Notes under the pieces: model-generated
Database searches by the model: none
The model's input: the letters and a program-made list of their open reading frames with translations, nothing else
What the model was told of the DNA's origin: nothing
Source of the DNA: a virus
Taxonomy: Duplodnaviria > Caudoviricetes
Direction: 5' to 3' (one strand)
DNA: 54,700 nt
Virus record (IMG/VR): IMGVR_UViG_3300028897_000119
Span: 1-54,700 of that record
In this document: piece after piece, positions 1-12,556 of the stretch
Layout of the letters: each line of letters begins with the position of its first letter
Numbering within the stretch: position 1 is the first letter of the stretch
Position numbers and translations under genes: made by a program

Positions 1-144
1 CAGGATGCTTACGCGAAGCTGCGGCGCGAATTCGAGGACGAGGAGGACCGCCGTGCCGCTACACGTTCCTGACTGGTGCGAGAAGCACCGCGTACAGTTG
101 CGCGGCTATCCGATTGGCGACAAGCAAAACGGCGCATTCCATTT
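1..144. repeat. Terminal direct repeat, copy 1 (identical to 54557-54700); circular-assembly overlap
   Basis: Exact 144-bp match, caggatgctt...cattccattt, at both ends; ORFs read through the junction. Confidence 0.95.
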
Positions 145-394
145 CAGGGAGCGAGGGTTGAGTGTGATCGTGTCGGTTGGCGCGGGGTGGGAACACGCCT
201 CCGTCAGCCGGCGCTCAAAGATGCCGAGCTATGACGACATGACATGGATCGCCTGCACGTTTTGGGGCGATGACGACTGCCTTATGCAGCTCCACGTTCC
301 GCTCAAGGACCATGTCAACAATTTCAATTACTGCCTGCACTGGTGGCGGCCGCTCGATCAGGAGATCCCGAGGCCGCCGCAGTTCTTGGTGTGA
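53..394 (+). CDS. Conserved phage hypothetical protein (WEHxSVS...LHxWRP family)
   Basis: GTG start after GAGGAGGA; motifs GWEHASVS, FWGDDDCLMQLH and CLHWWRP, recalled from a widespread phage family. Confidence 0.75.
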   Translation: MPLHVPDWCEKHRVQLRGYPIGDKQNGAFHFRERGLSVIVSVGAGWEHASVSRRSKMPSYDDMTWIACTFWGDDDCLMQLHVPLKDHVNNFNYCLHWWRPLDQEIPRPPQFLV

Positions 395-403
395 GGAGGA
401 CGC

Positions 404-595
404 ATGAAAATCTTTTGGTGGGGTGACGTCGATGATCTCTACGCACAATTGCCGACGCTGCATTTCACGCAGCCGGAAACGATGACGGTCATGGTCGAGT
501 ATGGCGACAAGGCCGGCAAGCTCGAGGAGCTGATTGGTGCCGGCTACATCGAGGTCAGCCGGCGCACGGCGTTCACGATGGGGCTGCCGGCATGA
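404..595 (+). CDS. Hypothetical protein
   Basis: GAGGAGG Shine-Dalgarno; ATGA overlap with next gene. Confidence 0.7.
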   Translation: MKIFWWGDVDDLYAQLPTLHFTQPETMTVMVEYGDKAGKLEELIGAGYIEVSRRTAFTMGLPA

Positions 596-933
596 TTGAT
601 CGAAGTGACGAGAAGCCCCGCTTTGTGATCGCGCAGCCGGCGCCGACGCACATTGCATTCATGGCGCAGGGCGAGGAGGTCGGCCGAATGTACCTCGAGG
701 ATCCGCTGCGGTTCGAGGGGCGCGCGGATTGCGCGGCGCAAGTGTTCTTCAACCATGTGGTGAATCACCACTTGCAGATCCGCGAACTCCTGATGCGATA
801 CATCCGGCATGTCGGAAACTGCGAGGGTGTTGACTTCATCTCGCGCCCAGGTGATCGGCGCGGCAGCAACGAATTCACCGACGACCAGTGGGCAAAGCTC
901 GAAGCTCTTGCGAGGGAAGCGTGGAACACGTAG
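592..933 (+). CDS. Hypothetical protein
   Basis: Translationally coupled ORF with typical codon usage. Confidence 0.7.
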   Translation: MIDRSDEKPRFVIAQPAPTHIAFMAQGEEVGRMYLEDPLRFEGRADCAAQVFFNHVVNHHLQIRELLMRYIRHVGNCEGVDFISRPGDRRGSNEFTDDQWAKLEALAREAWNT

Positions 934-1237
934 ATTCGACAGCTCGGCATTTTCAGGTGCCGAAAATTTTAGGCCCCCGGAGTAACCAGCTCCGAGGGCC
1001 TCGGGAATCGGGTAGTCGATTACCGGCGCACACGGATTGTAACGCAAAATCCGCGTGTCGCCCTACCGGCGCCGCTTCCTGCGGTGCTAATTCCACACTC
1101 GACCGGAACTCGAGCAGGCAAAAATCTCGGGGAGGTCCGACCGGCCGACCAGTGATCCGAGTGGCCATAAGGGCAACGGCAGCGACCAAAGGCGAGCCTA
1201 GTAGCCTGTCACCCGACAGGGCCAAAGGCCGGTAGAT
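934..1237. other. Hairpin-dense intergenic region (candidate ncRNA, regulatory leader or origin)
   Basis: Several inverted repeats, e.g. tcggcat/gtgccga, aggccc..ggag/ctcc..gggcct, ggcg-cacacggatt/aatccgcgtgtcgcc, cctgtc/gacagg. Confidence 0.45.
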
Positions 1238-1732
1238 ATGCCCGCGAATCACGAATTGTTCCTCGAGCGGCTCGACGCCAGTCAAACGGCGGTGTGGTGG
1301 GTCGCGCATTACCTGTGGCAGCGCGGCCATACCGTGAAGCTGCCGCCATACGAGCGGGCACCCACTTACGAGGAGCGGGGAGGCTACAGCGACAACGGGG
1401 ATCTCTACGTGGACGCCGGCGACGATGCCGGCTGGCACCGCTGCGAGGTCAAGCGGCTTGGCTACCCGTTTACGTGCCGCAAGGACTGGCCGCACAAGAC
1501 ATACATGGTTTGCTCGACATCGTCATTTGATCGAGCGACCGAGAAACCTGACTGGTATTTCCACCTCAATCCCGACATGACGCACTTTGGCTTTGTGGAT
1601 GTCGGCAAGACGGTGGACCAGTGGCAAAAGCAAACTGCAAAGGACAGCAATTTCGGCGGTCTCGAGCAGGAGGTGTACGTGGTCAATCCCGACCGCGTTC
1701 GATTCATGGAGCTGAGGTTTGATAATGGCTAA
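1238..1732 (+). CDS. Putative PD-(D/E)XK nuclease-fold protein
   Basis: DNGDL...EVK motif. Confidence 0.55.
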   Translation: MPANHELFLERLDASQTAVWWVAHYLWQRGHTVKLPPYERAPTYEERGGYSDNGDLYVDAGDDAGWHRCEVKRLGYPFTCRKDWPHKTYMVCSTSSFDRATEKPDWYFHLNPDMTHFGFVDVGKTVDQWQKQTAKDSNFGGLEQEVYVVNPDRVRFMELRFDNG

Positions 1733-2033
1733 GAAAAAACAAGCGAAAGCAATGACGTTCCGGCAGCGCCTTCGGGCTGACTGTGCTGACCGGCTCGAGA
1801 AGATCTGCGAGGCAGTGCGGCTCAACGCCATCAATGCCGTGCAGGCATCGGACTCGGCAATCAATCCGTATGACGTCATGCGGCTGATTACCGGGGGGCA
1901 GACAAAGACGCTGCGCGAGCGGCTGATTACCGAGCTGGCCAATGAGATCGAGGCCGAGCTCGAGCAGATCTACAACCGGCAGATCGGTCTCGACTTGGAG
2001 GACGGCAATGGCGTCGAAAAAACCGAAGATTGA
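1725..2033 (+). CDS. Hypothetical helical protein
   Basis: ATG after GAGG; overlaps neighbouring genes. Confidence 0.7.
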   Translation: MAKKKQAKAMTFRQRLRADCADRLEKICEAVRLNAINAVQASDSAINPYDVMRLITGGQTKTLRERLITELANEIEAELEQIYNRQIGLDLEDGNGVEKTED

Positions 2034-2724
2034 GTCGCTGCCGGTCGAGTCAATCGAGGCCACTGCGGCGACGCAGGTACGCAAGCGTCTCGACAAGGAC
2101 ACCATCGAGCAGTATCGGGAGGATCTCGAGAATGGCGACCAGTTCCCGGCGATCATCGTGTTCCGCGAGAAAAACAGCAAGCGCACGGTGCTGGCTGATG
2201 GCTTCCATCGCCTGCTCGCACACATTCACGCCGAGAAGGAAACCATCGACTGCGAGATCCACGAGGGCGACATTCACGCGGCGCTGCAATATGCCCTGGG
2301 TGCCAATGCGCAGCACGGCCTGAGACGCACGAAACAGGACAAGCGCAACGCGGTGGAGCTGGCCCTCAAGGATCCTGAGATCTCGTCTCTCGAGCGTCAG
2401 GAGATCGCTGACTTGTGCCGTGTGCATGTGCGCACGGTCTACAAGATTCAGCGGGAGCTGAATATCGGCGACGAGCCGGCGACCGAGAAACCCAAGAAGC
2501 CGGAAAAGGCCAAGCCCGAGGACAATCGACCCTCGGCCAAGCCGGAGCCGACGCAGGAGGAGGTCGAGCTCGAGGAGCTGCGACAAGCCTGCTCGCTCAT
2601 CAAGGCGTTTCCCTATGGTGGCGAGGACTCCACCAAGCTCGAGCTCACGCCTGACGATGTCGCGGATCTCGAATACGTGAGCACTTGGACGGCGGCGGCC
2701 GTGATCGTGGCGAGGAAAAAGTGA
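2008..2724 (+). CDS. ParB/Srx-like N-terminal domain protein with HTH
   Basis: FPAIIV...LADGFHRL...NAQHGL motifs followed by RQEIADLCRVHVRTV (HTH-like); GGAGG Shine-Dalgarno. Confidence 0.8.
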   Translation: MASKKPKIESLPVESIEATAATQVRKRLDKDTIEQYREDLENGDQFPAIIVFREKNSKRTVLADGFHRLLAHIHAEKETIDCEIHEGDIHAALQYALGANAQHGLRRTKQDKRNAVELALKDPEISSLERQEIADLCRVHVRTVYKIQRELNIGDEPATEKPKKPEKAKPEDNRPSAKPEPTQEEVELEELRQACSLIKAFPYGGEDSTKLELTPDDVADLEYVSTWTAAAVIVARKK

Positions 2725-4238
2725 AGATCGAGACGCGCGAGTATCAGGCGAGCGATGTTGACTATGCGATGGGGCATGGCGTCAACGACCGCGTGATCCA
2801 CTGTGCGCCGACCGGCTCAGGCAAGACGATCATCCAATGCCTGATAGCAAAGCGGGAAATGGATCGCGGCAATTCGACCGCGATCCTGACCCCGCGCAAT
2901 GAGATCTTCACGCAGACGCACGGCGCAGCCGCCTCGATCTGCGGGGCGAACAACGTCTCGACGATGCGCGCCAAGCGTCAGGGCGAATACTGGAATCCAA
3001 TGAATCCGGTGCATGTCATATCCTGGCCGACGCTCATCGCCCGAGTCCGCAAAGACAAAGACTTCTGGTTCCCGAGGGTCGATCGCGTCCTCGTCGATGA
3101 GTGTCACCTTTCGATGGCACCGAAGATCCTCGAGATCCTCAACCACTACGAGCTCAAAGCCCGCGTCGATGGCTACACGGCGACGCCGGCACGGCAGACT
3201 GGCCGAGGCTTGGGCTACTACTTCACCGAGATCAAAAACGTGGTCTCGGTGCGCCAGCTCATCAAGGAGGGATACCTCGCGCCGGTCGAATACTATGGCG
3301 CTGACGCGCCGGATCTCACCGGCATTAAGATCAGGAAGGGCGACTATGAGGTCGGCAAGTTATCGAAAGCCTGCGTCGAGCTGGTGGGCGACGCGATCGA
3401 CAATTGGCTCAGGCTGGCATCCGACCGACACACCATCACGTTCGCCGTTGACATCCGACACTGCGAGGCCCTCGCCGACCGCTTCAATCGGGTCGGCATC
3501 AAGGCCGAGGCGCTGCACACCGGACTGTCGCAGGGCGACCGCGACAGAGTCGTGGCTGCGTTCAAGGCCCAAAAAATTCAGGTGCTCGTCAACGTAGGCA
3601 TAGCGTCATACGGATTCGACGCACCCTCGGTTCGCTGCGTCCAGGTATGCCGGCCGACCAAAAGCATCGTGTTGCACTTGCAGATGATTGGTCGAGGCAT
3701 GAGGCCCAAGCCTGACGGTGGCGAGTGCATGGTCCTCGATCATGCCGGCAACGTGCCGCGCCTCGGCATGGCTGACGATCTGTTCCGCTGGCGCCTCGAT
3801 GATGGCAAGAAAGCCTGCGATAACTGGTCGCGTCATCCGAAATCGGGCGAGGCCGAGGAGTCCAAGCAATACGAGTGTCAGGAGTGCCGGCACATATTCA
3901 GCCGCCAGCGGATCTGCCCGAAATGTGGCTGGCAAGTACCGTTCTCGAAGCGTGACATCGAGGCCAAGGACGCGGATCTGGTGCCGATCGGCAGGAACAC
4001 GGCCAAGCCGCTGCCGCCCGACTGGCCGAGCTATGAGGTGTTCTACGCCATGCTTCGGCACTACGCTCAGGAGAAGGGCCGCAAGCCCATGTGGGCCGTG
4101 TTTACGTTCGAGAAAAAGGCCAAGTGCCGGCCGCCGCACGAATGGAATAATCACGCGCTGGTGCCGCCGTCGCCGCGCGTACTCAACTACATCAGGAGCC
4201 GAGAGATTGCCTTCTATAAAGCCAAGCAACGAGCATAA
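2721..4238 (+). CDS. SF2 DExH helicase (RadD/YejH-like) with C-terminal zinc finger
   Basis: Walker A APTGSGKT, DECH, TATP, GFDAP, QMIGRGMR, LDHAGN, CxxC...CxxC. Confidence 0.92.
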   Translation: MKIETREYQASDVDYAMGHGVNDRVIHCAPTGSGKTIIQCLIAKREMDRGNSTAILTPRNEIFTQTHGAAASICGANNVSTMRAKRQGEYWNPMNPVHVISWPTLIARVRKDKDFWFPRVDRVLVDECHLSMAPKILEILNHYELKARVDGYTATPARQTGRGLGYYFTEIKNVVSVRQLIKEGYLAPVEYYGADAPDLTGIKIRKGDYEVGKLSKACVELVGDAIDNWLRLASDRHTITFAVDIRHCEALADRFNRVGIKAEALHTGLSQGDRDRVVAAFKAQKIQVLVNVGIASYGFDAPSVRCVQVCRPTKSIVLHLQMIGRGMRPKPDGGECMVLDHAGNVPRLGMADDLFRWRLDDGKKACDNWSRHPKSGEAEESKQYECQECRHIFSRQRICPKCGWQVPFSKRDIEAKDADLVPIGRNTAKPLPPDWPSYEVFYAMLRHYAQEKGRKPMWAVFTFEKKAKCRPPHEWNNHALVPPSPRVLNYIRSREIAFYKAKQRA

Positions 4239-4281
4239 CCCTGGGCGCCAGCAACGGCGCCTGATATTCCTCGCCGACCGA

Positions 4282-4521
4282 ATGGCCTTGCTGTTATTGG
4301 AGCTGGTGCGCCGAGACTTTGAGTTTGGCAAATTTTGCTTCGAGGAATTCTACGAGGGTGAGATCCCCGACCATCACCGCAAGAGCAGGGACTACGAGAT
4401 CTGCCTCGATTTTGTCCGCATGATGCTGAGGAAACACGATGAAAAAGAAAGGGCCGAGAGTCAGGAATCCACGGCGCAAGCCGGATCGCTACCAGAACAT
4501 CGAAAAGCACAAGCATCCTGA
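4282..4521 (+). CDS. Possible hypothetical protein (start uncertain)
   Basis: Fills the gap between helicase and DUF1064 genes; no clear Shine-Dalgarno. Confidence 0.3.
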   Translation: MALLLLELVRRDFEFGKFCFEEFYEGEIPDHHRKSRDYEICLDFVRMMLRKHDEKERAESQESTAQAGSLPEHRKAQAS

Positions 4522-4840
4522 CGGCACGGTCTGCGACTCGAAGCGGGAGCTCAAGCGATACGAGGAGCTGCTACTCATGCAGCGCGCCGGCGTGATCCGA
4601 GATCTCACGGTGCATCCACGGTATGCCATCACCATCGGCGGCACACCGATCAAGATTCGCTCGGCTGGCTACCCGAACGGCCGGCACCTCACCTACGTCG
4701 CTGACTTCGAGTATCACGATCTCGAGCGATCCAAGCTGGTCATCGAGGATGTGAAAATGCAAAGCGGCTTCCGCACGGAAGTCTACAAGATCAAGAAAGC
4801 ACTCATGGAGGCGATGGGCTATGCCATTACCGAGTATTGA
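4439..4840 (+). CDS. DUF1064-family putative endonuclease
   Basis: DSKRELKRY...YVADFEY...IEDVK...YKIKK motif. Confidence 0.85.
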   Translation: MKKKGPRVRNPRRKPDRYQNIEKHKHPDGTVCDSKRELKRYEELLLMQRAGVIRDLTVHPRYAITIGGTPIKIRSAGYPNGRHLTYVADFEYHDLERSKLVIEDVKMQSGFRTEVYKIKKALMEAMGYAITEY

Positions 4841-5000
4841 GGCCAAGCGCCGGCAGCTACAGCGCCGAGGCTGGTCGCCGAAGCGGATCGAGCAGTACCT
4901 CAAGGACTGGAAATGGAAGATCCACCCACCACTCGAAACGCGCGGCAATGCCCGCCGGCCCAAGGCGGTCGGCAAGGGGAGCCTGCCTCATGGTAGGTAA
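4821..5000 (+). CDS. Small basic hypothetical protein, 59 aa (MPLPSIEAKRRQ...); not in the ORF track
   Basis: GGAGG at 4807; open frame to TAA at 5000; bridges the DUF1064 and Ref-like genes. Confidence 0.55.
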   Translation: MPLPSIEAKRRQLQRRGWSPKRIEQYLKDWKWKIHPPLETRGNARRPKAVGKGSLPHGR

Positions 5001-5445
5001 AACCGCGCCGATCAAGGTCTCGCACCGCCAGCGATTCAAGATCATCAAGGAGGCCATTGGCTGTCTGCCTTGCGCCTGTGTCGGCTACCTCGATGTGCAT
5101 ACGAGCATCGAGCATGTCACCGATGCGGGGCGCCGCCTTGAGGGCGAACACGATGCGACGATAGGGCTATGCGCATGGCACCACTTCGGCACTTGTCACC
5201 CTGGAAGAACTCGGCAGTGGATGTCCGGCGAATTCGGGCCTAGCCTTGCTTGGGGCCGGCGAGTGTTCGAGGAGCACTTCGGCGACGAGGTCACGGTGCT
5301 GCTACCCTTGCAGGATCTCGTCATCGGCTGGTACTTGGAGTCGCCGTGGCCTGACTATACAATGCCCCGGAACATTGCCCGCAAGCTGCGAATAGAATGG
5401 ATCGAGCTGAATCATGCCTACACTACACGGTCGAGCGAAGCGTAA
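4990..5445 (+). CDS. Ref-like (recombination enhancement) HNH nuclease
   Basis: GCLPC...EH...TIGLCAWHH...GPSLAWG...FEEHFG pattern. Confidence 0.75.
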   Translation: MVGKTAPIKVSHRQRFKIIKEAIGCLPCACVGYLDVHTSIEHVTDAGRRLEGEHDATIGLCAWHHFGTCHPGRTRQWMSGEFGPSLAWGRRVFEEHFGDEVTVLLPLQDLVIGWYLESPWPDYTMPRNIARKLRIEWIELNHAYTTRSSEA

Positions 5446-5539
5446 AGAAAAATCCGCTGTTTCCCCGCCTCGCCTTGATTTGTGGAGATTTCATCAGAAT
5501 TCGGGACCGGAACTCGGTGCCGGAGAGGTTTGATCGCCT

Positions 5540-5869
5540 ATGTCAAAGATGGGTCGAGGACCAGCCGCCAAGATAGACGCGCCTCGCGATCTGCCGAGCG
5601 GCATTCCCTGGGTGCAATGGCGGGTCGAGAATGAGGACGAGATCGCGCGGTTCCTTGAGGGCTTCGAGGTCCGTATGCGGCCGGCTCCGGGGAATCAATT
5701 GCTGATTCAGGGCCGCTATCATCGCTGGTCGCTACAACTCAGCCCCGGCGACTGCCTCGTGCTACAGCCTGCCTCGGCTGAGTACCCGCGCGAGCGGCTC
5801 GGGCTCGTCCGTGTGCCCGAGTCCGCAAAGTTCCGCGAGTCAGAGAACCCCGAGGACTTCCGCTTCTAG
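5540..5869 (+). CDS. Hypothetical protein
   Basis: GGAGAGG Shine-Dalgarno; converges on the minus-strand operon. Confidence 0.65.
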   Translation: MSKMGRGPAAKIDAPRDLPSGIPWVQWRVENEDEIARFLEGFEVRMRPAPGNQLLIQGRYHRWSLQLSPGDCLVLQPASAEYPRERLGLVRVPESAKFRESENPEDFRF

Positions 5870-6043
5870 CGTGAATTGCACGGCGTAGGGAAAGCGGCGG
5901 TCGCCGGCGATCCACATGCGAATAGCCCGCTCCGAGCAGCCAAGTATTTCCTCGGCCACTTGGCGCTGAGTCTTGCCAGTGCTGGCGATTAGCTGGCGCA
6001 GGTACTCAGGATCGGGATTGTATTCGGCCGGATTGGGTTTCAC
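5840..6043 (-). CDS. XRE-type HTH transcriptional regulator; last gene of the minus-strand operon
   Basis: YLRQLIASTGKTQRQVAEEILGCSERAIRMW. Confidence 0.85.
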   Translation of the reverse strand: MKPNPAEYNPDPEYLRQLIASTGKTQRQVAEEILGCSERAIRMWIAGDRRFPYAVQFTLEAEVLGVL

Positions 6044-6267
6044 CGCGCCTCCCTTGCGGCCTGCCGCCTTGCCATATATTCGAGCACCGGGACCGGCAGA
6101 CTACGCCACTCGACGGCCAGCGCGTCGAGCAGGTATTGCCGGCCCTCGGCGGCCGTCTCGGAGTATTCCGAGTCCGGCGGCCATAGGCAGCTAATGGTTT
6201 CGATGGCGTCTACTCGGCGCCGGTCAAGCTCGCGACGGTCGTCGCAGTGGTGGCAACAATTGCTCAT
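6040..6267 (-). CDS. Early hypothetical protein
   Basis: Coupled ORF; GGAGG Shine-Dalgarno. Confidence 0.7.
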   Translation of the reverse strand: MSNCCHHCDDRRELDRRRVDAIETISCLWPPDSEYSETAAEGRQYLLDALAVEWRSLPVPVLEYMARRQAAREAR

Positions 6268-6509
6268 GGCTCGCCTCCTGGGTAAGTAAGCATGAAATCG
6301 TCAAGCGCGTCATCGGTGACGCCTGCCTCGCGATCCTCCTTGTCTCGCTGCTCGATGGCCGCATACCAGCCCTGCACGAATGCGTCCTGCTGTACGCAAT
6401 GCAGCGGGTCAACGTCGCCCTCGTAGCAGTCGCAGCAAATTGGTTCGCCAGTGGCGGCGGCGAACACCTCAAAAATCGGGTCGCCGCACTTCTCGCATAG
6501 TCTCGTCAT
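6264..6509 (-). CDS. Early protein with small zinc finger
   Basis: CEKC...CCDC; ATGA coupling. Confidence 0.7.
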   Translation of the reverse strand: MTRLCEKCGDPIFEVFAAATGEPICCDCYEGDVDPLHCVQQDAFVQGWYAAIEQRDKEDREAGVTDDALDDFMLTYPGGEP

Positions 6510-6739
6510 TGGTTCGCCCTCCGGTGCTTGGCCTGTCCTGGGCCGTGGAAGTGGTGACGCTCGCCCGAGGTGAACACGACTGTTCCCACCTCGAACCAGC
6601 TTTGCCAGTGGCAGACCCGATGCACAAGGCCGTCATCGCCTATGCACTGAATCTGCTGCCCCGGCAATGGATTGCCGAGGCGCCATGTTGTCGCGGGCTC
6701 GCCCTTGCCCTTGCTGATAGATACGTGTGTCGGTTTCAT
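6506..6739 (-). CDS. Early hypothetical protein
   Basis: GGAGG Shine-Dalgarno; ATGA coupling. Confidence 0.65.
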   Translation of the reverse strand: MKPTHVSISKGKGEPATTWRLGNPLPGQQIQCIGDDGLVHRVCHWQSWFEVGTVVFTSGERHHFHGPGQAKHRRANQ

Positions 6740-7338
6740 CGTGGACCCTCCGAAAATGCGCCAATACATTCGAGCGAGTGCCGGACGCAATAGCCGAACT
6801 CTTTGGCCGCGTCGGTGTCGCTGGTGGTTTCTGTCGCCTGCTTGCCGTAGGTAATGCGGTGCAGGGCCTCGCCGTCGCCGAGGTACTTGTATTCCCACTT
6901 AACGGGATGATCGCCCTCGCTCCACTCGGTGAGAATCATCCACGGCGGCGGCGGCGGCAGCCCCTCGCGGAACATGCCGGCCGCGTCGCAGTGGGCAAGG
7001 TCACGCTCGCGCGCAAGCCTCGCGATCTCGTCCAGGGTGTCGGCGCTCCACTCCTCCTCAGCTTCGAGGAGGTGCAGCACGGCGGCCGCGAAGTCGGCGC
7101 GCCGCTGGTTGGTCTCCTCGATACTGCCTCGCGGGCCGGAGCCGTTGAACCAGTTATCGGAAACCCAAGCGGTGCCGCACTCCTCGCCCTCGGAGGTGCG
7201 CAGTATCGCCGTGCCGGCCTCGGAGTCGGCCAGCGTATTGATTAGCTTCGGCGCGTTGAGTACGTGCGCCATCTCCTCGCTCAAGCGGTCATCGAAAGCC
7301 TCGGCGTGAGTGTCAACGCTGATATGTATGAACCTCAT
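6736..7338 (-). CDS. Early hypothetical protein, acidic, probably multi-domain
   Basis: GAGGAGG Shine-Dalgarno; 200-aa ORF. Confidence 0.75.
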   Translation of the reverse strand: MRFIHISVDTHAEAFDDRLSEEMAHVLNAPKLINTLADSEAGTAILRTSEGEECGTAWVSDNWFNGSGPRGSIEETNQRRADFAAAVLHLLEAEEEWSADTLDEIARLARERDLAHCDAAGMFREGLPPPPPWMILTEWSEGDHPVKWEYKYLGDGEALHRITYGKQATETTSDTDAAKEFGYCVRHSLECIGAFSEGPR

Positions 7339-7559
7339 GGCTGCACCTCCTCGGCGCTGTCGAAAAACGCGCCCGAATAGGTGCCGATATGCAAGTCGCC
7401 CGCCTCGTCGATCTCGGCCGGATAGATACCGCTCGGGACATCGTCGGGGTCGTCTTGGCGCAGGATTAGCGCCTTTGCGTCGCGCTGGTCGGGGTCGTCA
7501 TAGGGCCCGTAGAGCGTGGGCTCGACATCCTGATAAATGAACAAAACGTAAAATTTCAT
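7335..7559 (-). CDS. Early, very acidic small protein (74 aa)
   Basis: ACGCGAGGAG leader; Asp-rich sequence. Confidence 0.75.
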   Translation of the reverse strand: MKFYVLFIYQDVEPTLYGPYDDPDQRDAKALILRQDDPDDVPSGIYPAEIDEAGDLHIGTYSGAFFDSAEEVQP

Positions 7560-7614
7560 CGTGTTACTCCTCGCGTGAACGGGCGCCGACACTGTGCCGG
7601 CGCCCTTGTTGGTT

Positions 7615-7866
7615 TCAGTAGCGCGCAAGCTGCTCGATCCAGTCGAGGCCGTTGCTTATGGGTGCCTCGATCCGCTGGCAGCCCTCGCCATTGCTGAACG
7701 GGTACAGGATCGTGCCCCGCCTTGCTTCTCGGTCGTAGTAAAGCCAGCGGTCGCCGTGCGCGGCGAAGCCGAGACCCTGGGCGAGCGCCTCGACATACTC
7801 GCGCTGCGCCCATACCTGCCGAGCCTCGCCCTCGCGGGGCTCGGTGAGTGTCTTGCTGATTGTCAT
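7615..7866 (-). CDS. Early hypothetical protein (MTISKTLTEP...)
   Basis: AGGAGG Shine-Dalgarno directly after the upstream stop. Confidence 0.7.
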   Translation of the reverse strand: MTISKTLTEPREGEARQVWAQREYVEALAQGLGFAAHGDRWLYYDREARRGTILYPFSNGEGCQRIEAPISNGLDWIEQLARY

Positions 7867-7876
7867 GGCGTACCTC

Positions 7877-8161
7877 CTAGAATTCGTCGGCCTCGATAAT
7901 TCCCCGGCCGCACTCGTTGCACGTTTGCCCGATGGCGTCGGGCTCGGCCCAAGTCCCGCAGTCGGGACAAATAGCAGACTCCGGCGCGGTAGCCTCGAAG
8001 CTCCACGCGCCGCAAGTGTTGCCGTTAATGTCGAGCAGGTTCCCGCAGTCATGGCCGGCCTCGATACGGTTGGCGGCCTGCCGTAGCAGGCGCGCCGTCT
8101 CAGTCTCGCCGCCGTCCGCGAAAGCGGAGCCGTTGCCCTCGATCTCAAGACTAAGCCGCAT
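7877..8161 (-). CDS. Early conserved phage protein (AF...E.ARLL...DINGN.G) with C-terminal zinc finger
   Basis: Family motif recalled from small phage proteins; CPDC...CNEC. Confidence 0.75.
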   Translation of the reverse strand: MRLSLEIEGNGSAFADGGETETARLLRQAANRIEAGHDCGNLLDINGNTCGAWSFEATAPESAICPDCGTWAEPDAIGQTCNECGRGIIEADEF

Positions 8162-8813
8162 CTTTCGCCTCCTTCGCGCGGTAGTCGCGCAGGAACTCGA
8201 TAACGGCCGCCATCTCGCGGGCGCTGAGGTCAATCTTTACGCTGCCGGGGCTGCGGTATTCAATCGTCAACGGCCCGCCCTCGATCTCGCGGACAAAATA
8301 GGGCCGGTCGGCCTGCCGGTGCTCGTTGTGAGTGTCGCGCGTTGCTTTCCATAGCAAGTCGATAAGCTCGGCCTCGCCGTCGCTGCTCTTTTGCCGGTCG
8401 GCTGCGATCTCCTCGGCCCTCGCATAAAGGCGCTCGTATTCCGGCAATAGCCGGCGCTCGATGTCGCGCGCGATAGCCTCGGGAGTCCTTGAACGGGCGC
8501 ACGAGATAACCGGCCGCGACTCTTTCGGGTTCCACATTGTCGAGGGGTCCACGGTCATCGTGCGGCCATCGGGGTCGGCGTAAGTCGGCCAGCCCAGGGC
8601 GCGGAACTCGAAGCGGTCGGGCTTGTTCCATACCACCTCGGCCACTATCTGCCGGCCTTGCCCGTTGCTGAAATAGTGCCAGCGGCTCCATGCGTCCTGT
8701 TCCTCGGGGTCGGGGTCAAGCTGCCAGCCGTTGCCGAGTGCCTCGGCTACTGGTGCAAGCTGCTCCCGCATATATGCGCGCTCCTCGGCGCGTTCTTTCT
8801 GGTAGTCGTTCAT
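8151..8813 (-). CDS. Early hypothetical protein
   Basis: ACGCGAGGAG leader; 220-aa ORF. Confidence 0.8.
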   Translation of the reverse strand: MNDYQKERAEERAYMREQLAPVAEALGNGWQLDPDPEEQDAWSRWHYFSNGQGRQIVAEVVWNKPDRFEFRALGWPTYADPDGRTMTVDPSTMWNPKESRPVISCARSRTPEAIARDIERRLLPEYERLYARAEEIAADRQKSSDGEAELIDLLWKATRDTHNEHRQADRPYFVREIEGGPLTIEYRSPGSVKIDLSAREMAAVIEFLRDYRAKEAKDAA

Positions 8814-8857
8814 GCTCTTACTCCTCGCGTAAGGGTTACGGGTCCAATGCGACCCAC

Positions 8858-8882
8858 CAAGCCGCCGACTCGCGGCGGCTTG
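8858..8882. repeat. Intergenic hairpin CAAGCCGCCG-N5-CGGCGGCTTG, copy 1
   Basis: Perfect 10-bp stem, identical to the stem at 10358-10382. Confidence 0.85.
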
Positions 8883-8891
8883 AGGGGGGCA

Positions 8892-9038
8892 CTAATGCCA
8901 GTCGTGGACGTAGCCGCCAAGGCGGCGAATCTCGGCCATTGCCTCGCGGTGCTCGGCCTCGCTGCGGGTTATCCACGTATTGCCGGCCATGCCGGCGCGC
9001 GGGGGCGAATAGCCCCAATGTATGACGCTGTACCTCAT
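8892..9038 (-). CDS. Early small protein (48 aa)
   Basis: GGAGG Shine-Dalgarno; ATGA coupling. Confidence 0.6.
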   Translation of the reverse strand: MRYSVIHWGYSPPRAGMAGNTWITRSEAEHREAMAEIRRLGGYVHDWH

Positions 9039-9295
9039 AGCCGCGCCTCCTGCGTTGTTAGCCAGCGGTCGAGGCGTCGCTCCTCGGCTTCGAGGTCGGC
9101 GATAAGCTGCAACGACTCGGCCAGCGTCCACGCGGTCGAGCCGGTCGCCTTTTCGCGCGCTCGCTGCGCGATCTCGACAATGGCGCCGGCTAGTTGCTCG
9201 TCTACCGGCCGCGCCGACTGCATGATGCAGCCGACACGCCGGCCCAGGGTGCGGGCGCCTTGCTCCCGCAGTAGCTCCACCGCGCTAGTAGTCAT
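9035..9295 (-). CDS. Early hypothetical protein
   Basis: GGAGG Shine-Dalgarno; coupled to neighbours. Confidence 0.65.
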   Translation of the reverse strand: MTTSAVELLREQGARTLGRRVGCIMQSARPVDEQLAGAIVEIAQRAREKATGSTAWTLAESLQLIADLEAEERRLDRWLTTQEARL

Positions 9296-9653
9296 AGCCG
9301 TAAGCCTCCCCGCCCTCGGCGTCGCACCAATTGGCCAGCCGCTTCGCGGCATAGATGGCGCTCAGCCCGTTAATGTATTCGGCCTGCTCCTCGTAGTCGG
9401 TGAACGTGTCGGCGATGCGCTCGCCGTCGCGGAACACCTCAAGGCCGGCATAGCCGAGCGAATCGCGGCGGGCCAGCACGTAGAGCGCGCCGCCCTCCTC
9501 GAATAGATCGAGGTCGTCGCCGGTGCCGGCGCCGATGGCGTAGCGGTGCCCGCGCCATATGACGACAGTGGCGGGGTTATAGCGGCCGGCGGCTCGCTGC
9601 TCCTCCCATGTCTCGCGGTCTAGCTGATACTCGAACGGTTTAAGGGTTCGCAT
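9285..9653 (-). CDS. Early hypothetical protein
   Basis: ACGCGAGGAG leader. Confidence 0.75.
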   Translation of the reverse strand: MRTLKPFEYQLDRETWEEQRAAGRYNPATVVIWRGHRYAIGAGTGDDLDLFEEGGALYVLARRDSLGYAGLEVFRDGERIADTFTDYEEQAEYINGLSAIYAAKRLANWCDAEGGEAYGYDY

Positions 9654-9870
9654 GTCGTGACTCCTCGCGTTGAATCCAATAGGTGAGATCGCCGAGGGTG
9701 CGGCCGACTGGCCGCCACTCCTCGGATTTATCGCAGGGCTGCGCGTACCATGCGCGGACCCACTCGCCCCGGTCGTTGTAGACTTTGCGCCGGGGGTTAA
9801 TGGTCAAGCCCTTGCGGGCGCGCCACTGGCGGCCCGCGATGCGGAATACTCGGGTTTTCTCGTAGGCCAT
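9640..9870 (-). CDS. Early basic hypothetical protein
   Basis: GAGG Shine-Dalgarno; overlaps next gene. Confidence 0.65.
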   Translation of the reverse strand: MAYEKTRVFRIAGRQWRARKGLTINPRRKVYNDRGEWVRAWYAQPCDKSEEWRPVGRTLGDLTYWIQREESRHANP

Positions 9871-9873
9871 CGG

Positions 9874-10302
9874 TCACACCTCGAAGCGGTCAAAAACGGG
9901 GATAGGCGAGGCGCTCGGGCCTCGGCTGTCGCTGGTGTCGATGTAGTGGCCGCCGAACATACCGCCGAGGCGGGGCCGGCCGTTGTCATCGACCGGGACG
10001 GCCTTGGCGCGCATTAGCTTGTGCTGCTTGGCGTAGCAAAGCGGCCGGCCGTCCGCGTCGTAGCGGTCAAGCTGGCCGATCTCGCCGAGCCACTGCGGCG
10101 ACGCCGCCAGCATGTAGCCACTGGCGCAGCCCTGCGGGTCGAGGTCATAGACCAGCGCCAGCGCCGGCATATCGTCGCGCGCCTCGAATATCTCCGGCAT
10201 ACCGTCGCCGATCAGGCAGGCGTGACGCTTGCCGCTGGTGACGCCGCCGGCGGTGCAATCCATGCCCTGCACGAAAACCATTAAGCCTTTCAGTGTTGTC
10301 AT
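9874..10302 (-). CDS. Early conserved phage protein (DCTxGG...MFGG...TSDSR...DRxE family)
   Basis: Family motif recalled; ACGCGAGGAG leader. Confidence 0.8.
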   Translation of the reverse strand: MTTLKGLMVFVQGMDCTAGGVTSGKRHACLIGDGMPEIFEARDDMPALALVYDLDPQGCASGYMLAASPQWLGEIGQLDRYDADGRPLCYAKQHKLMRAKAVPVDDNGRPRLGGMFGGHYIDTSDSRGPSASPIPVFDRFEV

Positions 10303-10357
10303 TGTCTTACTCCTCGCGTTGTCGCGGACCCTGGGCCCGCTGTTGTGAAAGCACTAA

Positions 10358-10382
10358 CAAGCCGCCGGCGCGCGGCGGCTTG
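10358..10382. repeat. Intergenic hairpin CAAGCCGCCG-N5-CGGCGGCTTG, copy 2
   Basis: Perfect 10-bp stem, extended by GCAC/GTGC. Confidence 0.85.
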
Positions 10383-10391
10383 GTGGTGCCC

Positions 10392-11336
10392 TCAGATAAG
10401 GGCAAGCTGTACCGGCTCGGCCAGCGGCTCGGCCGCCCGCCTCGCGACGCTTGCGACGCCGCCCCACTGGTCGGCCATCGCGCGCGCTATGCCGGCAAAG
10501 AATCGGCTCCGCTTGTGGCCTCGGTCGTCGCTCGGGCCCATACGGTCGGCGCCGCATGGCGACTGATTCGCCCACCGCTTAACCGGCTTGCCCTTGTAGG
10601 TGTCGAGGCGGGGCGCGACATAGTCGGCGGGGTCCGCTTCGAGCTTGGGCAGGCCGTGCAACCATAGGCCGGTTTTCTTGCTGTGGTCGTGGCCGTACTC
10701 GTAGGGCTGCACGTATTGGTCGGCCGGCCGTATCTCGGTGCCGATGCAGCCCACCGGATTTTCAAGCGCCCACCGCTCGACCGGCGCCGCCATGAGATCG
10801 CGGACAAAGTCGAGCGCCTCGATACGCTTGGCCTCGCGCTCGGGGTCACGCTGGCAGCGCCAAAGCTGGCAGGCGGCGAGGTAGGTACAGGGTGGGTGGA
10901 AAATGGCGAGGTGGTAGCCGTCGCCGATAATGTCCCGAACGTCGCCGGTGTAGTGCTGCCCCTCCGGCGACTCGGTCGGCAGGATGTCGCAGCTTGTGGC
11001 GTCGTGGCCGGCGGCCGCGAAAGCATCGCGGACAGTGCCCGAGAATTCGCAGCCGACGAGTACGCGGCTCAGGTGGTAGCCGCTGGCGCTGGCGCGCTCC
11101 TCGGCCGCTGCGATCTCGTCGCCATAGTCGGCGATCGACTCGGCGCCGGGGCGCTGCGTATAGACCGCCTCGGCGAGTAGCTCGCCGGTGTCGATGTAGT
11201 CGGCGGCCACGGCGTCGCCGTTTCGCACGTTGAGAAGCTGCGAGGCGGTCAGTGCGGCCCGCACGGCTGCCGAGTAGTCGGCAGCCAAGCGGGTCACGTT
11301 CAGCCGGTCCAGTCGAATCAGGCGGCCGCTGGTCAT
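10392..11336 (-). CDS. DNA cytosine-C5 methyltransferase-like protein with about 85 aa of N-terminal extension
   Basis: VLVGCEFSG (motif I-like), HPPC (catalytic), ENP, C-terminal RSRFFAGIARAMADQWG. Confidence 0.85.
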   Translation of the reverse strand: MTSGRLIRLDRLNVTRLAADYSAAVRAALTASQLLNVRNGDAVAADYIDTGELLAEAVYTQRPGAESIADYGDEIAAAEERASASGYHLSRVLVGCEFSGTVRDAFAAAGHDATSCDILPTESPEGQHYTGDVRDIIGDGYHLAIFHPPCTYLAACQLWRCQRDPEREAKRIEALDFVRDLMAAPVERWALENPVGCIGTEIRPADQYVQPYEYGHDHSKKTGLWLHGLPKLEADPADYVAPRLDTYKGKPVKRWANQSPCGADRMGPSDDRGHKRSRFFAGIARAMADQWGGVASVARRAAEPLAEPVQLALI

Positions 11337-11749
11337 TGCTTCGCCTCCACGTTGCGGCGTACCTGCGTCGCGTTGTACTCGGCGGCGTCGGCAGCATAGG
11401 CGCGCTCGGCGCTGCGGCGGTCAAGCTCGGCGCGCATGGCGTCCCTGAGTGCCCGCTGATAGTTGGGCAGGCAGCGATAGCCGTGGCCGTCCATTGTCAT
11501 CGCCTTGTCGCCGCCAGCCATATCGGCATGGCAGGCGCTCGCGTTCATCAGCTTGGCCTCAATGCTTCCCCGGCTGCGGCCGGCTAGTGGTCCGGTATCG
11601 CCGGGGCCGTTGCTGCGGCTGATATGGCGAATCATGGCGGCCTTGTTGTAGTCCTCGCGGCGCCGGACTCGGTCGAGCATGTCGAAGTAAAGGCGGCAAA
11701 GCGCAAGATTCTCGGCAGCCGTCCAAGGGGTGCGTTTCGTGACAGTCAT
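11333..11749 (-). CDS. First early gene: stand-alone domain resembling the N-terminus of HNH/DUF3883 restriction-type nucleases
   Basis: WTAAEN...YFDML...YNKA...RSRGSIEAKLMNASA...GY...NYQ pattern; no nuclease domain follows. Confidence 0.65.
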   Translation of the reverse strand: MTVTKRTPWTAAENLALCRLYFDMLDRVRRREDYNKAAMIRHISRSNGPGDTGPLAGRSRGSIEAKLMNASACHADMAGGDKAMTMDGHGYRCLPNYQRALRDAMRAELDRRSAERAYAADAAEYNATQVRRNVEAKQ

Positions 11750-11818
11750 GGTGTTGGTCCTCGCGTTGTAGTGTCGGCCTAGTGAGGGCCGGCTCGCTCG
11801 TTTGAGGGAGCATCGCGG

Positions 11819-11848
11819 ATTCTGAGGCACAATGTGCCGGGATGTCAA
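11819..11848 (-). promoter_or_regulatory. Sigma70-like early promoter TTGACA-N18-CAGAAT with palindromic operator GGCACAnTGTGCC in the spacer
   Basis: Consensus -35 directly upstream of the minus-strand operon; palindrome at 11826-11838. Confidence 0.7.
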
Positions 11849-11902: not shown

Positions 11903-12556
11903 ATGCAAAACACTGACGCGCAAACGAAAACCGACCCGGCAGGCAGCAACTCACACAAGGGAGGGAGACCCACCACCTACCGGGAAAGCGTCGGCGCTCT
12001 TATCTGCGCGCGGCTCAGCGAGGGCGAAACACTGACCGAAATATGCAGGACACCGGGAATGCCAGCACGGCAAACGGTCCACCAGTGGCGGCGCCGATTT
12101 CCGCAATTCGACGACGATTACATGCGCGCGCGGGCCGATGGCATGGAGTCAATGGCCGATGAGCTACTGACGATAGCGGACGACGACACCGGCGACCTAC
12201 TGCCGGACGGCTCGCCGAATCACGCCAACGTCGGCCGTGCCCGCCTCATGGTGGACGCTCGCAAGTTCCTCATGTCGAAGCTGTCGCCCCGGTACGCCGA
12301 CAAGGTGGAGCACCAGCACACCGGGGCAGTGGCGCACCTCGTGACCCTCGACGACCGGGAGCGTATGCGCCGGCTCGCCTCGTTCATGCTTGAGGACCAG
12401 CGCGCCGGGGCCTTGATCGAGGGGCAGGCCGGCCGACTGCATAATGCAGCCGAGGAGGGCAGCCAAGCCGGCGACCCTGCCCGCCCCACCTCGGAGGGCG
12501 AACCGCAGCCGGGGGCAATGAGTAAGGACAGCGACGGCGATGGCGATGGATCGTGA
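11903..12556 (+). CDS. terS: Terminase small subunit (Sf6/P22-like)
   Basis: GRPTTY...ICARLSEGETLTEIC...GMP...W...YMRAR...ARLMVDARKFLMSKLSPRY; upstream of TerL. Confidence 0.9.
   Translation: MQNTDAQTKTDPAGSNSHKGGRPTTYRESVGALICARLSEGETLTEICRTPGMPARQTVHQWRRRFPQFDDDYMRARADGMESMADELLTIADDDTGDLLPDGSPNHANVGRARLMVDARKFLMSKLSPRYADKVEHQHTGAVAHLVTLDDRERMRRLASFMLEDQRAGALIEGQAGRLHNAAEEGSQAGDPARPTSEGEPQPGAMSKDSDGDGDGS

Follow-up and report, generated by a model that had tools for sequence, protein, structure and literature searches.

Why should a tailed virus carry, as a gene of its own directly in front of a DNA methyltransferase, what looks like the leading domain of a bacterial restriction nuclease with the nuclease itself missing? 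The question is posed by gene F (protein P0001) of IMG/VR record IMGVR_UViG_3300028897_000119 (Duplodnaviria; Caudoviricetes), a complete virus record of 54,700 bp with terminal repeats, which at its full length is referred to below as the window. An earlier reading of the bare sequence (the original prediction) had recognised in F the N-terminal domain of DUF3883 or HNH nucleases, and had proposed that the protein is a decoy or DNA shield against a modification-dependent nuclease or, alternatively, a specificity partner of the methyltransferase. The analysis presented here makes it near certain, as far as sequence can establish it, that F is the ~105-residue helical N-domain of PDC-S36-type NOV_C/HNH nucleases in free-standing form, and puts at about even the chance that it acts as a non-catalytic accessory subunit which targets or regulates the methyltransferase on DNA. 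This partner role is the best-supported reading and is preferred over the decoy. The features concerned are:

11333 to 11749, minus strand: gene F (P0001), a 138-residue all-helical protein; ATG at 11749, stop codon 11333-11335
10392 to 11336, minus strand: P0002, a C5-type DNA methyltransferase of 314 residues, matching phrog_757 'DNA methyltransferase' (E 3.2e-53)
11073 to 11336, minus strand: N-terminal extension of P0002 (codons 1-88), four helices, acidic; predicted docking site of F
11333 to 11336, minus strand: ATGA overlap of 4 nt between F stop and methyltransferase start, read from the sequence
11758 to 11762, minus strand: Shine-Dalgarno-like GAGGA, 8 nt before the ATG at 11749, read from the sequence
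11819 to 11848 (read 11848-11819), minus strand: sigma-70-like promoter match TTGACA-18 nt-CAGAAT, 10/12 matches

Identity of the F domain

That F is a real protein, conserved far beyond chance, is confirmed at the level of its sequence by 114 near-length homologues at E<=1e-3 (best non-self E 1.3e-42) and by a family of 113 representatives after 50 % clustering. Every motif from which the original prediction had been drawn is present in the conserved 138-residue translation: W9, E13-N14, Y21-F-D-M-L25, Y34-N-K-A37, R58-SRGSIEAKLMNASA-72, G90-Y91 and N96-Y-Q98. F has no Pfam family at E<=1 and likewise no NCBIfam or PHROG match; Pfam detects no HNH catalytic domain in it, Pfam and PHROG assign it to none of the anti-restriction families ArdA, ArdC, Ocr and KlcA, and single-sequence and profile searches found no relative in the PDB. 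Its sole PADLOC match is to PDC-S36, with residues 5-126 aligning to positions 3-109 of that 280-position profile (E 1.9e-14). As F ends at residue 138, with no Pfam family at E<=1 and no NOV_C, it is, judged by sequence, only the N-domain of a PDC-S36 protein rather than a PDC-S36 system, and the absence of a nuclease domain had been called correctly.

The nucleases to which this domain is ordinarily joined are bacterial. A scan of species-representative bacterial genomes returned 57 loci with an F-like domain, distributed over many phyla, and a search of 301 alphaproteobacterial representatives gave a match in 23, among them L120, L121 and L123 below. In the 51 open reading frames (ORFs) scanned from the 57 loci the domain lies N-terminally in proteins of ~280 residues, and NOV_C (PF13020, formerly DUF3883) is present in 49 of them, a set that leaves aside one locus with an in-frame stop (L061), three ORFs at contig edges, one near-duplicate and L091. 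The last is a contig of 54,650 bases within a bacterial genome assembly on which each of the seven window proteins queried has a 100 % identical copy, and is probably a phage binned with the bacterial genome. Alignment of the phage F domains with the bacterial N-domains by hhalign (99.6 % probability, E 7.9e-24) supplies the profile similarity that the original prediction had called for, and the proposed identity is borne out by the PDC-S36 match, by the NOV_C fusions and by one HNH fusion, the alphaproteobacterial ORF L120, in which HNH (PF01844, E 3.5e-10) stands in place of NOV_C. A third architecture occurs in two further alphaproteobacterial ORFs (L121:1375-2229 and L123:1012-1824), where the F-like domain is joined to an uncharacterised C-terminal part that, in L121, has no Pfam match.

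Longer relatives were also sought in protein databases, where a word-indexed search with F alone found none. A search with alignment A2 covered lengths of 441-2000 residues, so missing the ~280-residue class, and returned only P0204. This 537-residue relative matches the full PDC-S36 profile at residues 256-531, with NOV_C at 414-510, and in the precomputed Pfam list also carries PF26345 (ScoMcrA_N) ahead of the F-like domain, with NOV_C behind it.

Stand-alone F-like forms are found on viral and metagenome contigs. Free and fused forms alike conserve W9, K36, R58, G61, S62, E64, K66, N69, G90, Y91, Y97 and Q98, and differ systematically at helix-3 positions 60, 65, 67, 68, 70 and 74. In a quick tree of 175 domain sequences, in which columns were few and many forks unresolved, all stand-alone forms fall into one group apart from the fused forms (97 by the Shimodaira–Hasegawa-like approximate likelihood ratio test, SH-aLRT).

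The AlphaFold2 model of F, built on alignment A1 with a mean predicted local distance difference test (pLDDT) of 92.7, has helices at residues 11-29, 36-43, 60-77 and 99-137, the N-terminal domain being followed by one long C-terminal helix (residues 99-137). Structural searches with it, a check which the original prediction had proposed, gave a divided answer: Foldseek returned no match at E<=0.001 in the PDB or BFVD, and the ESM Atlas gave clusters with NOV_C, ScoMcrA_N, HNH and MvaI/BcnI at template-modelling (TM) scores of 0.63-0.67, which serve as a lead only. An exhaustive fold aligner placed the Myb domain of TBF1 first (Z 5.9, root-mean-square deviation 3.4, 79 residues aligned) and many homeodomains at Z ~5; as these values lie below the tool's bar for helical proteins, a likeness to three-helix DNA-binding domains is a hint from the model, not a finding. 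An identity as a sulfur-binding domain (SBD) was considered and dropped, there being no Pfam, PDB-sequence or fold match (absence from the fold list is not by itself exclusive) and the motifs being different; the SBD residues H116, R117, Y164 and P165, as given in PMC6224610, have no evident counterpart in F.

The neighbouring methyltransferase

P0002 carries a motif I-like CEFSG, P148-x-C150 and E192-N-P194, and CE.S, P148-x-C150 and E192-N-P194 are invariant among its homologues. Its AlphaFold2 model (pLDDT 82) finds DNMT3A/3B, DNMT1 and M.HaeIII through Foldseek (E 4e-5 to 1e-3, probability 1.00). Sequence and model together identify it as a C5 cytosine DNA methyltransferase with a class I fold, a motif IV Pro-Cys and an ENV-like motif VI, and as a divergent one, since Pfam PF00145 does not match it.

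What sets the enzyme apart is its first 88 residues. The core (residues ~86-300) occurs in 160 cultured-phage records, only one of which covers at least 80 % of the query, and F itself, searched by tblastn, has no homologue among the 50,697 INPHARED phage records; so the extension, as far as sequence comparison goes, appears to go together with F. It is present in 22 of the 23 rows of alignment A4, with D46 and D49 invariant in all 22 extended enzymes, and residues 41-83 have a net charge of -9. A motif around residues 12-26 of P0002, away from the predicted interface with F, is near-invariant and varies less than much of the catalytic core.

Linkage of F to the methyltransferase

A survey of gene neighbourhoods, as the original prediction had suggested, revealed a persistent pairing of the two genes. 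Among 37 IMG/VR loci with an F homologue, a methyltransferase homologue lies directly downstream in 30 and directly upstream in one (L033, with the 4-nt overlap kept); two of the remainder end just past F and four have F without the enzyme. Of 35 informative viral loci, 31 thus have the methyltransferase next to F, a raw count that overstates independence because many of the loci are kin (large terminase TerL ~70 % identical) and several are duplicates. Twenty of the 30 loci with F upstream preserve the overlap, and in the window the coupling of F to the methyltransferase gene that had been noted earlier takes the form of the ATGA at 11333-11336, which suggests translational coupling. A metagenome scan seeded by distant stand-alone members added 80 loci, 37 of them with the methyltransferase.

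The link is not confined to one branch of the family. It is present in all three stand-alone subclades and in three gene arrangements: 1) F followed by an extended, overlapping methyltransferase; 2) F, a gap and a core-only methyltransferase (L156, L169); 3) the methyltransferase followed by an overlapping F (L033/L147).

A predicted complex

Complex prediction with F and P0002 at 1:1 gave an interaction score (ipSAE) of 0.80 in 3/3 runs, against 0.21 for the best of three controls, with at least 97 % of contacts agreeing between runs and a partner pLDDT of at least 87. When the tool was calibrated, 116 of 157 solved complexes and 2 of 215 mismatched pairs attained the mark, counts that hold only roughly here because our own alignments were used. 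No solved relative of either protein was found by sequence, and a score drawn from a memorised structure is therefore unlikely.

In the model, F contributes residues 5-9, 36-37, 58-62, 64-69 and 90-101 to the interface, and P0002 contributes residues 28, 43-55 and 66-83, all within the extension. The charges are complementary (F +7, P0002 -7) and the F side coincides with the residues conserved in free and fused forms. On this modelled evidence it is likely that F binds P0002 through the extension.

Possible functions of F

The favoured role as an accessory subunit of the methyltransferase has as its computed basis homology, gene linkage, both folds and a predicted complex that stood up to its controls. 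Under this reading, F would be made together with the downstream enzyme by way of the 4-nt ATGA overlap, and its invariant basic face (K36, R58-N69, G90-L101) would dock on the acidic helix pair (residues 43-83) of the extension. The same conserved face is shared with the nuclease fusions, where it presumably holds the common ligand of the family, most likely, at a guess, DNA; the acidic extension may cover this face until displaced by DNA. Formation of the complex in cells, DNA binding by the domain and a purpose in shielding phage DNA against restriction are all things we infer. Of the partner alternative in the original prediction, the pairing itself has therefore gained substance, through linkage in three arrangements and a prediction that passed its controls, and the specificity or targeting role is a putative one.

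Several observations weigh against such a partnership. Firstly, linkage is incomplete: besides the four viral loci that have F alone, ~22 of the 43 metagenome loci lacking the methyltransferase have at least 1 kb of sequence downstream, and ArdC or DUF7227/GP88-like genes stand beside F in loci of this kind. Secondly, the F-linked methyltransferases of L033/L147, L156 and L169 have no extension, and docking through it therefore cannot explain every linkage; conversely, the enzyme family is present in 160 cultured phages, presumably working without F, which is thus no general requirement. Thirdly, the complex score is a measure of model confidence, and the alignments used were self-made, mostly from kin phages. 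Finally, the idea of DNA binding draws on weak fold matches (Myb at Z 5.9, homeodomains at Z ~5), and burial of the sole conserved face of F on the enzyme would preclude simultaneous DNA binding, so that a specificity subunit would require some form of hand-over.

The strongest competitor, though an unlikely one that gained no direct support, is the decoy or shield. Here the bacterial fusions would be type IV-like nucleases that read methylated DNA through the N-domain, and free F would compete with them, or poison them by forming mixed oligomers, so shielding phage DNA methylated by the neighbouring enzyme. The setting of the fusions is congenial to this idea. They are solitary: none of 56 bacterial loci (L091 excepted) has a P0002-like methyltransferase, a PF00145 C5 methylase lies within two ORFs of the fusion in only 1 of 39 loci, and the 138 neighbouring ORFs scanned in those 39 loci include no recurrent partner. 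They often sit amid defence genes, ~14 of the 39 loci having restriction or defence neighbours (EcoRII-C or EcoRII-N, GmrSD_N, Mrr_cat+NACHT, type I HsdR, ResIII+PLD, Vsr, HNH and NERD, MTaX1 and the one C5 methylase); in other loci toxin-antitoxin or transposase genes adjoin the fusion. The N-domain is combined with one nuclease domain or another, an exchange typical of type IV restriction enzymes, the polar residues K36, R58, S62, E64, K66, N69, Y91, Y97 and Q98 are conserved in free and fused forms, and one F homologue adjoins the anti-restriction gene ArdC. It is worth noting however, that binding of methylated DNA by the F domain is purely assumed, and that PDC-S36 is itself an untested defence candidate. 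The helix-3 positions at which free and fused forms part company imply that their ligands may differ, and the complex model places the methyltransferase on the conserved face, an arrangement for which a pure decoy would have no use.

The accessory role can also be extended into a more specific history, in which the targeting or sensor domain of a host defence nuclease was taken over by phages and attached, via an acidic docking extension made for the purpose, to their own C5 methyltransferase. This is offered tentatively, as a rather doubtful elaboration. Were it true, the enzyme would be delivered to the very DNA feature sought by PDC-S36-type nucleases, a form of 'specificity theft' that would yield a reader-writer pair, with a logic like that of UHRF1-DNMT1, and a phage immune to such nucleases.

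Two further explanations are improbable. In the first, the nuclease N-domain would sense acidic, DNA-like phage proteins (anti-restriction factors, or the methyltransferase extension) and F would be a cap that hides the phage's own methyltransferase. An acidic protein surface is indeed what the conserved face is predicted to bind, HsdR adjoins the fusion in one locus (L088), and PDC candidates were chosen, according to the source cited below, from BREX, DISARM or type I restriction-modification (R-M) loci. Against this, the extension is seen only with F, and a liability of that sort would just be discarded; the bacterial loci yielded no homologue of the extension, and the scheme is pure inference. 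The least probable of all is that F is a small helix-turn-helix (HTH)-like regulator which controls the leftward operon or methyltransferase timing, as R-M controller proteins do: its place as first gene after a promoter-like site, its weak matches to homeodomain and Myb domains (Z 5-5.9) and its net charge of +7 would suit this, but F has no Pfam HTH family at E<=1 (HTH_3/Xre-type included), a promoter-specific role leaves unexplained the nuclease fusions of the domain across many bacterial phyla, and its recognition-helix-like residues are near-invariant across unrelated hosts, unlike those of operator-specific regulators.

Comparison with known systems

The closest known system is PDC-S36 (PDLC05008), a single-gene candidate of ~280 residues whose full members (P0204; L040 and others) share with F the motifs RS(R/D)GSIE.K..N, GY and NYQ. 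F differs in stopping after the domain and one helix, without NOV_C, in forming the separate clade described above, and in its own helix-3 substitutions. According to the preprint bioRxiv 2024.01.29.577857, PDC systems are 145 untested candidates, chosen because they lie within BREX, DISARM or type I R-M loci. The F-domain fusions also have in common with ScoMcrA-type type IV enzymes (head, reader domains and HNH, as described in PMC6224610) a beads-on-a-string layout in which a small head, a reader-like domain and a nuclease follow one another; P0204, with ScoMcrA_N, F-like domain and NOV_C in succession, and the existence of an HNH-fused form (L120) add to the resemblance, whereas F itself appears to be neither an SBD nor an SRA domain.

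Two comparisons bear on function. DNMT3L is the non-catalytic partner of the C5 methyltransferase DNMT3A, and F and P0002 would resemble this pair in that a small, in the case of F predicted, non-enzymatic protein sits on a C5 enzyme, the best structural matches of P0002 being DNMT3A/3B; there is no homology, however, and F is predicted to dock on an added acidic N-terminal extension rather than on the catalytic domain. Phage T4 provides a parallel for the decoy, as Arn acts against McrBC and IPI* against GmrSD, both being phage inhibitors that accompany DNA modification. The likeness would lie in coupling a DNA modifier to a protector against type IV nucleases; F has no sequence or fold relation to either, neither is among its PHROG or Pfam matches, and F would derive from a domain of the nuclease itself. 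Methylase accessory partners and phage capture of defence parts are kinds already known; the combination, and the F domain, are undescribed in the literature searched. By name, no paper was found on PDC-S36, on the plasmid protein WP_000080861 or on DUF7227, a literature search on DUF3883 and phage defence found nothing on an F-type N-domain, and the Vassallo paper makes no mention of DUF3883.

The domain is nevertheless common for one that has no Pfam or NCBIfam family, given its occurrence in the alphaproteobacterial genomes counted above, in many phyla and on more than 1,100 PLSDB plasmids. Full-length fusions account for these plasmid matches, which are mostly to conjugative enterobacterial plasmids and were obtained only when a more distant F homologue and a full-length fusion served as queries; tblastn of F itself against PLSDB gave no match. 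Small, soluble and provided with both a predicted partner and a defined interface, phage F offers a handle on an untested nuclease family. Should F target or regulate the methyltransferase, it would be half of a two-protein phage methylase built from a part of a defence nuclease; a decoy role would make it an anti-defence protein descended from the very protein that it counters. Either outcome would also show what the bacterial nucleases recognise.

Start codon and upstream signals

The ATG at 11749 is supported by sequence as the true start of F, because homologues share that position and keep W9, E13 and N14 (alignment A1), GAGGA lies 8 nt 5' of it, and a shorter call loses those three residues. 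The latter, a protein-database gene call at 11336-11680 (minus strand), begins F at Met24 to give 115 residues and is probably mis-called. The longest open frame reaches a TTG at 11923, and this longer version has no support.

The promoter-like site stands 5' of F and on its strand, in the gap from which F and an Sf6-type small-terminase gene diverge, and the promoter scan found two such sites against 0.6 expected. F had been described as the first gene behind a strong early promoter; the position holds, and 'strong' and 'early' find no support in what is a consensus match only.

Other neighbours and genome setting

In several lineages whose F homologue has no methyltransferase, the adjoining gene encodes a Cys-rich protein of ~250 residues from a virus-only family (L023:4324-5142, with L023 the same as L187; L037:3085-3906; L130, L132, L133 and L203). 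Its matches are to DUF7227 (weakly), GP88 (PF17338) and phrog_2554 / phrog_1617, and neither PDB sequence searches nor BLASTP with the DUF7227-like and GP88-like neighbours were informative; it may be another DNA-acting partner. In L034:4625-5494 (the same as L193 and L194) an ArdC-type anti-restriction gene (ArdcN + zincin peptidase) follows the F homologue, and in L035 a DUF932 gene lies downstream of it.

Among the plasmid-borne fused forms, an E. coli plasmid stretch (L096, 6710-7846) encodes a 378-residue 'DUF3883 domain-containing protein' with an F-like domain, flanked by IS26 and ISCfr1 inside a multi-resistance region. Within the window, the leftward block behind F (6040-11749, minus strand) consists mostly of small ORFs without a PHROG family, and the far-left rightward block (5-5869, plus strand) holds ParB-like, helicase, Holliday-junction-resolvase-like and Ref-like genes.

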